Below are positions 20,740-37,193 of a stretch of 64,000 nt of DNA, piece by piece. Source of the DNA: Gammaproteobacteria bacterium (GTDB lineage Bacteria; Pseudomonadota; Gammaproteobacteria; UBA4575). Location: positions 320,001 through 384,000 of the forward strand of contig CBDEUS010000002.1 of NCBI GenBank assembly GCA_965243395.1, read 5' to 3'. The first letter of the stretch is position 1. Every line of letters starts with the position of its first letter. The notes under the pieces were generated by a model, which saw only the letters and a list, made by a program, of their open reading frames with translations, was not told where the DNA came from and did not search any database. The translations under genes and the position numbers were made by a program.

Positions 20740-21323
20740 GTTGTAATTGGGTTACCAGGTGATTCTTCTGGCACACCATTACTATCTAAAGGTGCTAATC
20801 TGGTTCTGCCATTGTTATTGATAAATATAGCTCGTGATTTATTTAATAAATTGTTTTTACATAAAACAATTCGTCCATTTTGTGCTCTACCTTTGGCGCT
20901 GTAATCAAATGAACTTAAACCTCCAGCGCGCATTGTATAGTTATTTGGCAATCCTTCGTTTACTCTGATTAACTCTTCTCCTGCATCTGCATAATCTCCA
21001 TCACCATTACTGTCGAAAAATATAATCCAGCCATCTTCATAACCCACACCACTGCATGTGGCACCGTCGTTGCTGTGGCAAACAGTAACATCACTATTAC
21101 GCCGTATGGCTTCACTACGTGCAAAGTTCAATGTGGAGACAAGCTCATTTATGTGAGCCGTTAACTGATTCCTCTCAATGACTCTTCCAAAACCGGGGAC
21201 ACCAAGGGTCAACACAACTGCCGCTACAGCAATTGCGATCATGAGTTCAATTAAGGTAAAAGCAGATTCGTGTTTTTGCATATCCATAACATGCGAACAC
21301 ACGACGTGAAGATAACAAGCCAA
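20727..21323 (-). CDS. fimT: FimT minor pilin (true start probably 21287 or 21281)
   Basis: A|FTLIELMI, ARSEAIRR, GWIIF. Confidence 0.9.
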   Translation of the reverse strand: MACYLHVVCSHVMDMQKHESAFTLIELMIAIAVAAVVLTLGVPGFGRVIERNQLTAHINELVSTLNFARSEAIRRNSDVTVCHSNDGATCSGVGYEDGWIIFFDSNGDGDYADAGEELIRVNEGLPNNYTMRAGGLSSFDYSAKGRAQNGRIVLCKNNLLNKSRAIFINNNGRTRLAPLDSNGVPEESPGNPITTCIP

Positions 21324-33732: not shown

Positions 33733-35142
33733 TTAACAGCTGTAATACAATTCGAATTCAATTGGGTGAGTTGCCTGACGGAAGGAAGTCACTTCATCCA
33801 TCTTCAATTCGATATAACCATCAATACAATCATCAGAGAAAACCCCGCCAGCTTTCAAGAAGTCGCGGTCGTTGTCCAATGCTTCTAATGCCTGATCTAA
33901 CGAAGAGCAAACAGTAGGAATATTGGCTTCTTCTTCCGGTGGCAAATCATAGAGGTCTTTATCATTTGAAGAGCCCGGATCGATTTGATTTTGAATGCCA
34001 TCAAGACCCGCCATCATCATCGCTGCAAAGGTTAAGTATGGGTTACCTGATGGATCTCCAAAACGTACTTCAATGCGTCGTGCTTTTGGATTTGCTTCAT
34101 ATGGAATACGTATCGAAGCAGAACGGTTGCGAGCAGAGTAAGCTAGCATTACAGGTGCTTCAAACCCTGGTACTAAACGTTTGTAGCTATTTGTACTCGC
34201 ATTTGAGAAAGCATTAATTGCACGTGCATGTTTAATGATTCCACCAATGTAGTACAACGCTGTCTGAGAAAGATTTCCGTATAAATCGCCTTGGAATAAA
34301 TTATTACCATCTTTAAATAATGATTGATGCACATGCATGCCACTACCGTTATCACCAACAATAGGCTTGGGCATGAAAGTGGCTGTTTTTCCATAATTAT
34401 GTGCAACGTTATGTACAACATATTTTAAAATTTGATTCCAATCAGCGCGCTTGGTGAGTGTGTCGAACTTTGTGCCGATCTCGCACTGTCCTGCAGTACC
34501 GACCTCGTGGTGATGCACTTCAACCGTAACACCCATTTCTTCCAGCACTTGGCACATAGCCGAGCGTAAATCTTGTAAGGAATCCACTGGAGGTACTGGG
34601 AAATAACCGCCTTTAACTCCAGGGCGGTGGCCAATGTTGCCATCTTCGAAATGTTTTTGTGAGTTCCAAGCAGACTCATCTGAGTCCGTTTTGTAAAATG
34701 CGCCTGACATGTCATTGCTCCATTTCACATCATCAAACACAAAAAACTCAGGCTCTGGTCCAAAGTAGGCCGTATCAGCTACGCCAGTAGAAGTAAGATA
34801 AGCCTCCGCTCGTTTAGCAACAGAGCGTGGGTCTCTTCCATAACCTTCCATAGTAGAGGGCTCTAAAATATCGCAACGTAGAATTAGGGTTGAGTCGGCA
34901 AAGAAAGGGTCTATTACTGCACTCTCAGCATCAGGCATTAATATCATGTCTGATTCATTAATTCCTTTCCAACCGGCTATAGAAGAGCCGTCAAACATTT
35001 TACCTTTTTCGAAAATATCTTCTTCAACTACTGAAGCTGGCACAGATACATGCTGCTCTTTTCCTCTTGTATCAGTAAATCGAAAGTCAACGAATCTCAC
35101 ATCGTTTTCACTCATCATTTTCATTACATCACTTGCAGACAT
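33733..35142 (-). CDS. glnA: Glutamine synthetase type I
   Basis: [35 protein letters not shown], adenylylation site DLYDLP. Confidence 0.99.
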
Positions 35143-35250
35143 TGGACTTCTCCTTAGCTTCGACTCTTACGTTTTTAATGTGTAATTCTTACGGTGTTAT
35201 TCTTATGGTTGCGACTAGTTGCTAGTCACATTCATATCTAGATCTACTAA

Positions 35251-35266
35251 AGCACAATTTGTGCCA
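35251..35266 (-). promoter_or_regulatory. sigma54 promoter of glnA (glnAp2-like)
   Basis: Minus strand TGGCACAAATTGTGCT, GG-N10-GC. Confidence 0.85.
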
Positions 35267-35352
35267 TTGCACTCAATTGAGGCCAGTAGCTATGCAATTG
35301 CGGCATTATACGCAGCTTTTTTAAAAGATGTGAGGCGAGCAAAGCTTTTTTA

Positions 35353-35390
35353 TGCACTAATACAGTGCTTTAGAGCACCAAGATGGTGCT
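35353..35390. promoter_or_regulatory. Tandem NtrC enhancer sites
   Basis: TGCACTAATACAGTGCT (35353-35369) and AGCACCAAGATGGTGCT (35374-35390), about 90-125 bp upstream of the glnA sigma54 site. Confidence 0.85.
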
Positions 35391-35633
35391 CAAATTATAT
35401 TAATGATTATTGTGGAAAGGGCTGAACAAAAATTTATCTAGCTTTAGCAAATTTCACAGACCCATCTAATTTCATTAGTAACACCATGGTTTAACCGCTA
35501 TTAAGACAATCTGCTATACACATCTCATTCTGCCGAGATTTGTCACCAACAGTCCAAAATTGCAGACAAATTTTGTCCAATCGCCCATTTTGAAGTATTC
35601 GTAAATCCATCTTTTTTTATGTAACTGACATGC

Positions 35634-35646
35634 CATCAATGAGTTA
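35634..35646. promoter_or_regulatory. Probable IHF site
   Basis: CATCAATGAGTTA versus consensus WATCAANNNNTTR, about 30 bp upstream of a sigma54 promoter. Confidence 0.55.
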
Positions 35647-35674
35647 TTGCATACGCTTTATGTGATGAGCGATC

Positions 35675-35690
35675 TGGCACAACGCTTGCT
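35675..35690 (+). promoter_or_regulatory. sigma54 promoter of the microprotein/sRNA transcript
   Basis: TGGCACAACGCTTGCT is a perfect TGGCAC-N5-TTGC; predicted TSS about 35701. Confidence 0.85.
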
Positions 35691-35751
35691 CTATTGATAT
35701 TAGAAAATTTGAATGGCTCAAGGTGAGCTGAGTAAAGATGGCATGGAGGTC

Positions 35752-35883
35752 ATGATGGACGTATCAACTGATGTATTAACAACTGTGTATGTCGTGTGGA
35801 TCGTCGCAAGTTTGGCAGCGTTAGCTTGGGCATACCGAGACACTGTTAAAGAAAAATTGTGTGGCGATAAGCGACACAATTAA
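35752..35883 (+). CDS. 43-aa single-TM microprotein (unannotated)
   Basis: GGAGG Shine-Dalgarno immediately upstream; MMDVSTDVLTTVYVVWIVASLAALAWAYRDTVKEKLCGDKRHN has a hydrophobic helix followed by a basic tail. Confidence 0.65.
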   Translation: MMDVSTDVLTTVYVVWIVASLAALAWAYRDTVKEKLCGDKRHN

Positions 35884-36188
35884 AAGCGGGACGGATTCAT
35901 TTTTTAAGCAAGGATGCTTTTACACATACGGAAATGTGTGCAATGAACTGTAGAGTGGTGCGAGGCGGATAACAATTCGCACAGTAAGGAACACTTAAGA
36001 CAAGGACTGTCGCCTCTACAATTTAAATATATGTTGTCACTCAGGATGAGTACAACAAGCAAGGACGCAAAACTAGATAGCTCATCAGGAGAGTTTTATC
36101 TAAACCGACTTAGGGAAGAGGGCTGCGTGACATGGATGTCTTTTTCGCAGCACCAATATAAAGGCAAGCTAACTAGCTTGCCTTTTTT
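35884..36188 (+). ncRNA. CsrB/RsmZ-like CsrA-sequestering RNA (whole transcript probably about 35701-36188)
   Basis: About 12 GGA motifs, most in hairpin loops (AAGC-AAGGAT-GCTT, CACAT-ACGGAA-ATGTG, GAC-AAGGACT-GTC, ACTC-AGGAT-GAGT, GAC-ATGGAT-GTC), ending in a terminator. Confidence 0.82.
36160..36188 (+). terminator. Intrinsic terminator of the GGA-rich RNA
   Basis: AAAGGCAAGCT-AACT-AGCTTGCCTTTTTT. Confidence 0.9.
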
Positions 36189-36281
36189 ATTGCGCAATAA
36201 TTTACCAGGAAATACTGGTCATTTGCTGGTAGCCAAAGCGGTGCCTCGTTATACTCATGCGGCAACCGTTCCAGCAGTATC

Positions 36282-37193
36282 ATGTCAGACACCCAAACTA
36301 ATAAACGTCTAATTACCTTTCAACAACTCATTCACAAACTAGAGCAGTTTTGGGCTGCGCAAGGCTGTGTGATCGAGCAGCCTTATGACTTAGAAATGGG
36401 GGCCGCAACTTTTCATCCCAGTACTTTTTTGCGTGCCATCGGTCCTGAAACGTGGAAATCGGCCTATCCACAGGCATGTCGTCGCCCAACAGATGGACGA
36501 TATGGCGATAACCCTAATCGTTTACAACGTTATTTTCAGTTTCAAGTTGTATTGAAACCCTCGCCCGACAATATTCAAGACTTATATATAGAGTCACTCA
36601 CTTCACTCGATATTGATCCATTGATTCATGATATTCGATTTGTAGAAGATAATTGGGAATCGCCAACTCTTGGTGCTTGGGGTTTAGGCTGGGAAGTCTG
36701 GTTAGATGGAATGGAAATTTCACAGTTTACTTATTTTCAGCAAATAGGCGGCTTAGATTGCAAGCCGGTTACCGGCGAAATTACCTATGGTTTAGAACGT
36801 ATCGCAATGTATTTGCAAAATGTCGATAGTGTGTACGATTTAGTTTGGACACAACATGGGAGTCAAAAAACTTATTATCGTGATGTATATCATCAAAATG
36901 AAGTTGAGCAATCTGCCTATAATTTTGAATATGCAGACACGGATACTTTATTTAAATCATTCAATGCAAGTGAAAAAGAGTGTCAAAAGCTAATAGACCA
37001 CGAAATTCCAGTAGCTGCGTATGACCATGTGCTTAAGTGTTCACATACGTTTAATTTACTCGATGCACGACAGGTTATTTCGGTAACCGAGCGTCAACAA
37101 TATATTTTACGCATTCGCAAACTCGCACAAAGTGTTTCCAATAGCTATTTTGAAAGCCGTGAAAAATTAGGCTTTCCTCTATTCAGCGATTAA
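36282..37193 (+). CDS. glyQ: Glycine--tRNA ligase alpha subunit
   Basis: [39 protein letters not shown]. Confidence 0.98.

Follow-up and report, generated by a model that had tools for sequence, protein, structure and literature searches.

A candidate sigma-54-dependent CsrA sponge that also encodes a membrane microprotein, between glnA and glyQ of a gammaproteobacterium

In the textbook picture, Csr/Rsm sponges are non-coding RNAs, and it is GacA/UvrY that activates them. Could an RNA of this kind be controlled by sigma-54 instead, and carry a small gene as well? The question is raised by a unit at positions 35675-36191 (plus strand) of the window, by which we mean the whole analysed stretch of 64,000 nucleotides (nt) from Gammaproteobacteria bacterium (assembly GCA_965243395.1, contig CBDEUS010000002.1, positions 320,001 to 384,000). 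The unit lies inside the 1.14 kb spacer between glnA and glyQ. An earlier reading of the letters of this stretch (hereafter the sequence-only reading) proposed a Csr sponge under sigma-54 control that also encodes a peptide, and the in silico checks presented here agree with it.

We suggest that a single sigma-54-dependent transcript of ~490 nt would run from near 35700 to a terminator. Its 5´ part would be the mRNA of a membrane microprotein of 42 amino acids (aa), and its 3´ ~270 nt would form a Csr/Rsm-type sponge, with 9-12 A(N)GGA sites placed in short hairpin loops and junction strands. Such an array would bind several dimers of a canonical CsrA and relieve CsrA-controlled mRNAs. Transcription would depend on an enhancer-binding protein, with NtrC as the best candidate, and nitrogen limitation would then lower the amount of free CsrA. 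For this combined reading, a sigma-54/NtrC-controlled CsrA sponge that also encodes a microprotein, we estimate a probability of roughly 0.6. That a functional transcript is made from the unit under sigma-54 is very likely, and comparison of related genomes indicates that promoter, protein and RNA structure are three levels kept under selection.

The GGA-hairpin array and its presumed partner

By BLASTN the unit is found in 20 of 61 related genomes, namely in all 14 other species of the genus and in four further genera. This set of 20 loci, spanning five genera and bearing the open reading frame (ORF) of the microprotein throughout, is the basis of the comparisons below. In all 20 loci glnA and glyQ flank the unit in the same orientation as in the window (in L007 the glyQ match covers 35 residues only, the gene being cut by the contig end). 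The array consists of the following elements:

35884-36151 (+): GGA-hairpin array, 268 nt with 12 GGA, including a single-stranded ACGGATTCA
35906-35919 (+): hairpin with loop AGGA
35921-35940 (+): hairpin with loop ACGGAA
35949-36020 (+): three-way junction holding 35958-35982 and 35999-36011 (AGGAC)
35949-35955 and 36014-36020 (+): helix TGTAGAG/CTCTACA
35958-35963 and 35977-35982 (+): helix GTGCGA/TCGCAC
36032-36057 (+): hairpin (CAGGAT)
36059-36068 (+): hairpin
36074-36102 (+): hairpin (ATCAGGA)
36109-36120 (+): invariant CTTAGGGAAGAG
36122-36151 (+): terminal hairpin GACA-TGGA-TGTC
36122-36127 and 36146-36151 (+): helix GCTGCG/CGCAGC of the terminal hairpin

The sequence-only reading had counted about 12 GGA motifs in 35886-36140, mostly ANGGA in hairpin loops. 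The count is exactly 12, and the placement recurs in the orthologues, all 20 of which hold 8-13 GGA per 230-313 nt, 6-10 of them as ANGGA. When each sequence is folded singly to its minimum free energy, hairpin loops contain 112 of 215 GGA (52%), compared with 857 of 5471 triplets overall (15.7%), and the unpaired share is 151 of 215 for GGA and 1944 of 5471 for triplets overall. For 13 of the 20 sequences, none of 200 dinucleotide shuffles attained the observed number of loop GGA; for the other seven, 1-19 of 200 did. The longer motif CA.GGA[TC]G, which we take to be close to the CsrA core obtained by SELEX (systematic evolution of ligands by exponential enrichment), occurs three times in the 268 nt, compared with 0.077 per kb-strand genome-wide. 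The array thus holds multiple A(N)GGA, mostly in loops or single strands, as a Csr/Rsm sponge does.

Such density is rare in the genome. Segments of 260 nt contain on average 2.47 GGA (standard deviation 1.71), and at least 12 are present in only 39 of ~258,000. Merged, the densest segments give 16 regions, of which 12 lie wholly within open frames of at least 100 aa, one straddles two such frames and one is 16S rRNA. Outside long frames and rRNA there are only the glnA-glyQ locus and C2:518581 (11 GGA, no long frame). A scan of loop-GGA clusters for further sponges was dropped, being dominated by coding sequence; its top candidate, G000 C2:99280-100525, was an open frame of 415 aa preceded by another sigma-54 promoter.

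The RNA of 495 nt folds better than 100 of 100 shuffles (z = -4.45). All three long helices named by the sequence-only reading, TGTAGAG/CTCTACA, GTGCGA/TCGCAC and CTGCG/CGCAG, are present, and its expectation of covariation among the glnA-glyQ intergenic homologues is borne out, with covarying stems and conserved GGA loops. RNAalifold on the whole MAFFT alignment returned only 23 pairs, divergent hairpins being misaligned there; hand-set helices and a covariance-model alignment were used instead. For the 5´ half, the 20 sequences were aligned by MAFFT alone and the helices set by hand; 89.4% of cells are paired, and 11 of 28 pairs changed on both sides; the covariation score was reached by 0 of 500 shuffles, and slid controls pair in 24-54%. 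The covariance model served to align the 3´ half in 25 distinct sequences, 20 of them genomic and five metagenomic, and the resulting alignment is model-fitted and leans toward the model; here 86.1% of cells are paired and 12 of 31 pairs are compensatory, with the score again reached by 0 of 500 shuffles and slid controls pairing in 17-46%. The terminal hairpin and TGTAGAG/CTCTACA are invariant within the ORF-bearing set and so uninformative either way. Across clades, with the ORF-less homologues described below, the outer stem of the terminal hairpin turns from GCTGCG/CGCAGC to TCTGTC/GACAGA by three compensatory pairs, with GACA-NGGA-NGTC fixed.

What would bind these loops? The csrA gene that the proposal of a sponge presupposes is indeed present (PF02599 at 92 bits) and canonical, its product and the solved RsmA/CsrA chain 1vpz differing at four of 51 aligned residues. 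Order-wide, csrA and rpoN are each found in 52 of 56 genomes and, being near-universal, do not discriminate between RNA-bearing and RNA-less genomes. In G025 (genus g3), an RNA-less relative, csrA-like frames number five, and one of these contains an internal TGA; no other genome has more than one.

We consider CsrA the probable partner of the RNA, as predicted from the form of its loops. An array recognized by some other partner, or a modular base-pairing small RNA (sRNA) of NrsZ type in which the GGA loops are not CsrA sites, appears rather unlikely. It would account for the invariant CTTAGGGAAGAG and a terminal hairpin conserved beyond the need of generic sponge sites, it agrees with the array matching no Csr/Rsm family, and it has a precedent in NrsZ, an NtrC/sigma-54 sRNA of repeated stem-loop modules beside ntrBC. 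The conserved loops, however, hold A(N)GGA closed by pairs like ACA/UGU, and this is the element that CsrA/RsmE recognizes; among the RsmE-RNA complexes is 2jpp. Furthermore, the CsrA of the genome is canonical and searches of the genome for CsrB, RsmZ, GacA/UvrY and FliW revealed no other antagonist: FliW was not found, RF00018 gave only a 10.4-bit match elsewhere in the genome and RF00166 none. An orthologue of UvrY/GacA was likewise not found in the genome (best match 119.8 bits, cut-off 280), which holds only two regulators of REC+GerE architecture, one NarL-like and one FixJ-like.

The microprotein and the homologues without it

Upstream of the array the unit contains:

35717-35729 (+): hairpin GCTC-AAGGT-GAGC in the 5´ untranslated region (UTR), stem covarying
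35745-35749 (+): Shine-Dalgarno sequence GGAGG, itself a GGA site
35755-35883 (+): ORF of 42 aa, stop included in the coordinates, predicted single-pass membrane protein

The sequence-only reading described a transmembrane ORF of 43 codons preceded by GGAGG. ORF and Shine-Dalgarno sequence are confirmed. The in-frame ATG at 35752 gives 43 aa; the homologues keep the ATG at 35755 as start, which gives 42 aa (stop 35881-35883). The frame is intact in 20 of 20 loci with 39-43 aa, each time with GGAG(G/C)TC before the ATG, and its consensus product is MGVxTDVFTTVYVVWIAASMAALAWAYRHTVKxKLCGDKKR, by our reading a single hydrophobic helix with a basic tail behind it. The mean ratio of nonsynonymous to synonymous substitution rates (dN/dS) is 0.135, dN is smaller than dS in each of the 164 pairs that could be used out of 190, and the first, second and third codon positions have 21, 13 and 33 variable sites of 37. 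By these measures the ORF is a real gene under purifying selection.

As for function, the microprotein has no Pfam family, and the only NCBIfam matches, at 13 and 12 bits, stay below threshold. Among 1.84 billion cluster representatives, a profile search recognized three related clusters and one spurious repeat protein. In the ESM Atlas only unnamed clusters at 0.86 appeared, below the trustworthy level, and no function was found there. Both the microprotein family and the RNA family are absent from the curated libraries searched.

The 5´ UTR has features of its own. The stem of its hairpin reads GCTC/GAGC in the window and GCC/GGC in other genera, and its loop contains GGA in 15 of 20 orthologues (alignment read by eye). 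The window copy has AAGGT, and the Shine-Dalgarno sequence is the only GGA upstream of the ORF there; counting the Shine-Dalgarno sequence, at least two GGA are present in the 5´ UTR of 18 of 20 orthologues. Because the Shine-Dalgarno sequence and, in most relatives, the upstream loop are GGA sites, translation of the microprotein is probably CsrA-sensitive too.

The sites around the start codon suit a CsrA-regulated mRNA, and the ORF is real and strongly conserved. One might hence regard the unit as the mRNA of the microprotein and nothing else, its GGA hairpins being a cis-acting 3´ UTR (for example for CsrA-dependent control of stability or translation) without any titration. We find this unlikely. 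Firstly, 9-12 sites far exceed what cis control needs, judging by the CsrA targets familiar to us. Secondly, promoter, GGA hairpins and terminal hairpin are kept in homologues that have no ORF.

The ORF-less homologues came to light as weak matches (21-29 bits) of the covariance model in six genomes of genus g7. These loci share the glnA/glyQ synteny, the sigma-54 promoter (e.g. TTGGCATAGCGATTGCT), the IHF-like site and a related upstream block, and their RNA of 160-270 nt has 6-12 GGA hairpins and no conserved ORF. BLASTN with a g7 query extended the ORF-less form to 12 of 16 g7 genomes and to the one g11 genome available, and the sigma-54 promoter is kept in 12 of these 13 loci. The exception is G034, whose locus (L116, G034:C1:17099-20273) keeps the upstream block and has mutated GGA loops (CAGGGCGG, CACGGGTG) with no sigma-54 promoter found; it looks degenerate. 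One g5 genome holds a short remnant ending in the same terminal hairpin. On alignment, the terminal hairpins of g1 type and of g7/g11 type are clearly homologous. Since the g7 and g11 homologues have no ORF, the common core of the family is the GGA array and not the peptide, and the microprotein is confined to the ORF-bearing lineage.

A tree of GlnA and GlyQ from 37 loci (midpoint rooting, L007 left out) splits g7, g11 and g5 from the ORF-bearing genera together with g3, g4 and g10, with a support of 100 in the Shimodaira-Hasegawa-like approximate likelihood-ratio test (SH-aLRT). The genera g3, g4 and g10, which are RNA-less, are nested among the ORF-bearing ones with support 84-90. Read most simply, this topology points to an ancestral RNA with a single later loss; the tree would be compatible with gain as well as with loss of the ORF and favours neither. 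Beyond these genomes, the exact pattern of the terminal hairpin, which misses distant relatives such as the g7 form, was found in eight metagenome contigs and, among 185,579 species genomes, in 18 records, each of them a metagenome-assembled genome. The records are titled Gammaproteobacteria, Pseudomonadota (one) and uncultured Thiotrichales, with one Mycobacterium that we took as a binning label; 17 of the 18 are identical in the RNA part to known loci and one is cut by a contig end.

The surroundings of the unit are as follows:

33733-35142 (-): glnA, divergent from the unit
36160-36191 (+): intrinsic terminator, 11-bp stem at 36160-36185 followed by a T run
36223-36262 (+): conserved element before glyQ with a -10-like hexamer TATACT, from the 20-locus alignment
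36282-37193 (+): glyQ, downstream flank

The strong terminator of the sequence-only reading was recovered as this 11-bp stem with its T run, and a terminator is present in all 14 loci of genus g1. Between ORF and GGA array, a weak 9-of-12 match is the sole promoter-like site. The element at 36223-36262, with the pattern ..GCTGGTAG..N..TATACTC.CGC.GC kept in 20 of 20 loci, is likely the promoter or leader of glyQS and would mark the boundary of the unit; the transcript boundaries given here are those suggested by such signals. That the whole region is a regulatory leader of the glyQS operon is very improbable, since, although it always lies directly 5´ of glyQ and six loci have no obvious terminator, genus g1 has a strong one, the TATACT element is separate from the unit in 20 of 20 loci, and in g3, g4 and g10 glyQ follows a spacer of ~350 bp without the RNA.

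Outside the window, both contigs of the assembly (G000) begin with a tandem repeat (C1:5-9293 and C2:14-10076) that has a 387-bp period and at least 25 copies each, on opposite strands. With repeats at both contig starts, the break in the assembly falls inside one very long array, possibly a giant repetitive gene.

The promoter and its likely activator

The regulatory region, which extends toward glnA, comprises:

35675-35690 (+): sigma-54 -24/-12 promoter, TGGCACAACGCTTGCT, perfect match to TGGCAC-N5-TTGCW
35634-35646 (+): IHF-like site at about -60, CATCAATGAGTTA, one mismatch to WATCAANNNNTTR
35531-35580 (unstranded): upstream block kept in the homologues, at about -170 to -120, putative enhancer or binding site of a regulator
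35354-35368 and 35375-35389 (unstranded): two NtrC-type palindromes GCAC-N7-GTGC
35251-35266 (-): glnAp2-like sigma-54 promoter of glnA, TGGCACAAATTGTGCT, one mismatch

A perfect sigma-54 promoter and an upstream IHF-like site had both been noted from the letters, as had the lack of a GacA box, and each of these observations was upheld. The motif alone is not significant, with four matches in the window at up to one mismatch against 3.4 expected by chance; however, all 20 ORF-bearing loci have GGCAY-N5-TTGCT at the corresponding alignment position. The core TCA.T..GTTA of the IHF-like site is kept across the 20 loci as well. The spacing of GG and GC, the presence of rpoN in the genome and an upstream region with a bending site are those of a sigma-54 promoter, as far as sequence alone can tell, and would place the start site near 35700. 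The GacA box TGTAAG-N6-CTTACA, through which GacA/UvrY activates sponges of this class, does not occur upstream of the promoter within three mismatches. A second perfect TGGCAC-N5-TTGCT match is located at 21059-21074 (+) of the window (TGGCACCGTCGTTGCT).

All 20 loci share the upstream block, with the consensus TGCC..A.T.GTCACCA...G.C......G..GACAA....GTCC. The genome holds it only once (position weight matrix score 70, next best 0.2), and with no second genomic copy of these 50 nt no regulon can be derived from it. In all 20 loci one or two NtrC-type palindromes occupy a corresponding position, ~-120/-142 counted from the start of glnA and ~-320/-340 from that of the RNA, and the reverse-strand sigma-54 motif of glnA was recognized by pattern in 19 of 20 (L007 was missed). 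The glnA side (35251-35389 of the window) has the classical glnAp2 layout, which is kept in relatives.

Which enhancer-binding protein would act on the RNA promoter? Seven proteins of the genome have a strong Sigma54_activat domain (classed by NCBIfam). One is the orthologue of NtrC (732 bits), encoded in the adjacent divergent operon glnA-ntrB-ntrC. Two are products of genes lying next to each other, with NifA/PrdR and FlbD as best models, which we read as flagellar and FleQ/FleR-like. The remaining ones are two PAS-domain proteins, one AtoC-like response regulator and one NtrX-like protein, the last without a GAFTGA loop (sequence read by eye). As general activators, the PAS protein of 504 aa was rejected for having close orthologues in only three other genomes, and its 478-aa paralogue for similarly few.

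The check was carried to five RNA-bearing g7 genomes. In two of them, G027 (100% complete by markers) and G067 (83%), NtrC is the only strong Sigma54_activat match. G027, whose locus L113 keeps the sigma-54 promoter before the RNA, has otherwise one match at 47.6 bits, presumably an NtrX-like protein, and two weak ones in frames of 760-866 aa. The other three genomes have one extra activator each, not the same one. NtrC is the sole activator common to all genomes checked and therefore, by elimination, the likeliest one; for the activation of the RNA by NtrC as such we see about an even chance. The reading of a nitrogen-controlled CsrA sponge comes from one complete RNA-bearing genome in which no canonical sigma-54 activator other than NtrC is present. 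Elsewhere, at G000 C2:99280-100574 (outside the window), a 415-aa frame lies behind a sigma-54 promoter (TGGCACTGTAATTGCA) that has NtrC-like sites on its upstream side; the product is by our reading a periplasmic binding protein of the urea/branched-chain type, and this locus is likely another NtrC target.

Several observations weigh against the combined reading of an NtrC-controlled, peptide-encoding CsrA sponge. As to the activator, the conserved block at -170 to -120 is unlike an NtrC site, the canonical palindromes lie ~320-340 bp upstream and are positioned for glnAp2, and other sigma-54 promoters of the genome carry GCAC-N7-GTGC within 160 bp. Besides, the assembly of G027 consists of 50 contigs, and a gap between them may hide a further activator. 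As to the RNA, the long TGTAGAG/CTCTACA helix never covaries, and RNAalifold on the full alignment gave it an alternative partner. Infernal at Rfam gathering thresholds found no match to CsrB, CsrC, RsmX, RsmY or RsmZ in the window, and in 35150-36300 neither they nor any other Rfam family match the unit even at E<=10; the RNA is thus not a member of the CsrB/RsmY/RsmZ families. As to the unit, a look-up of sequencing runs containing the locus listed no RNA run, and of three runs presumed to be RNA and one near-identical DNA run, perhaps the source, only the DNA run covered it; six loci (those of the other ORF-bearing genera and G001) have no obvious terminator, which makes read-through toward glyQ possible there. 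Finally, in the four genomes examined from g3 (two), g4 (one) and g10 (one), the glnA-glyQ spacer measures 349-379 bp and lacks the RNA, and since these genera bear csrA, the RNA is not indispensable to CsrA-bearing relatives.

Known systems and significance

CsrB, CsrC, RsmX, RsmY and RsmZ resemble the unit in presenting many A(N)GGA in short loops over a few hundred nt, with loops fixed and stems covarying, in ending at a Rho-independent terminator (here in g1) and in having csrA encoded elsewhere in the genome. Unlike them, the unit has a sigma-54 promoter with an IHF-like site in place of a sigma-70 promoter with a GacA/UvrY box, carries a conserved ORF in one lineage and matches no Rfam model. 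Activation by GacA/UvrY is usual for Csr/Rsm sponges and not universal. RsmW and RsmV are not under GacA control, and RsmW is located at the 3´ end of a coding gene. Both differ from the unit in having no sigma-54 promoter and no dedicated microprotein, and their sequences are unrelated to it. In the relevant part of its description, RsmW of Pseudomonas aeruginosa is an Rsm sponge (PMC4950607). For P. stutzeri, the passages on RpoN report a negative effect on rsmZ, probably via GacA (PMC8249394).

The nearest precedent for a sigma-54-driven sponge is CrcZ/CrcY of Pseudomonas. The sigma-54 promoter of CrcZ is driven by CbrB, a two-component enhancer-binding protein. CrcZ has A-rich motifs binding Hfq/Crc, whereas the unit has GGA loops and CsrA as presumed partner. 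CrcZ is treated as a protein-sequestering RNA in the pertinent passages of PMC5113210.

Two further RNAs, NrsZ and GlnZ, are like the unit, as we picture it, in being nitrogen-controlled and physically tied to the glnA-ntrBC locus. NrsZ is NtrC/sigma-54-dependent, consists of modular stem-loops and lies beside ntrBC. In contrast to the unit, both act by base pairing and have neither GGA-loop arrays nor an ORF; moreover, GlnZ is cut from the glnA 3´ UTR, whereas the unit is divergent from glnA. No Rfam match connects the unit with NrsZ, for which Rfam 15 may hold no model. The passages that introduce them present NrsZ of Pseudomonas aeruginosa (PMC4253122) and GlnZ of enterobacteria (PMC9731577) as nitrogen-controlled sRNAs.

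One transcript serving as regulator RNA and as mRNA of a small protein is what the unit would have in common with SgrS/SgrT, Spot 42/SpfP, AzuCR, SR1/SR1P and RNAIII, and SgrS also has some homologues without the ORF. To our knowledge, all known examples of dual-function RNAs pair with mRNAs. On CsrA-binding sRNAs, a 2025 review of dual-function RNAs goes no further than naming them as a class that may yet prove to contain small ORFs (PMC12612679). We found no sigma-54-driven or coding Csr/Rsm sponge in the literature on CsrA/RsmA sponges, sigma-54/RpoN and dual-function RNAs.

Taken together, the unit appears to have the anatomy of a Csr/Rsm-type sponge outside the curated families, from which it would depart in promoter type and, in one lineage, in coding capacity. 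More tentatively, and with doubt prevailing, we propose that an entire order of Thiotrichales-like, uncultured Gammaproteobacteria (GacA-less in the one genome checked) controls CsrA by a single NtrC/sigma-54 sponge beside glnA, and that the sponge of one lineage is at the same time the mRNA of a CsrA-sensitive membrane microprotein, which would make it the first dual-function protein-sequestering RNA. If our assumptions are true, a sigma-54 (probably NtrC) sponge would bring nitrogen status into the Csr network as an input instead of the Gac signal, and would show a route of CsrA control in bacteria without GacS/GacA. The concept of dual function would then extend from base-pairing sRNAs to protein-sequestering RNAs, and the ORF-bearing and ORF-less homologues would offer a natural pair in which to study how coding and regulatory RNA come to share a transcript.

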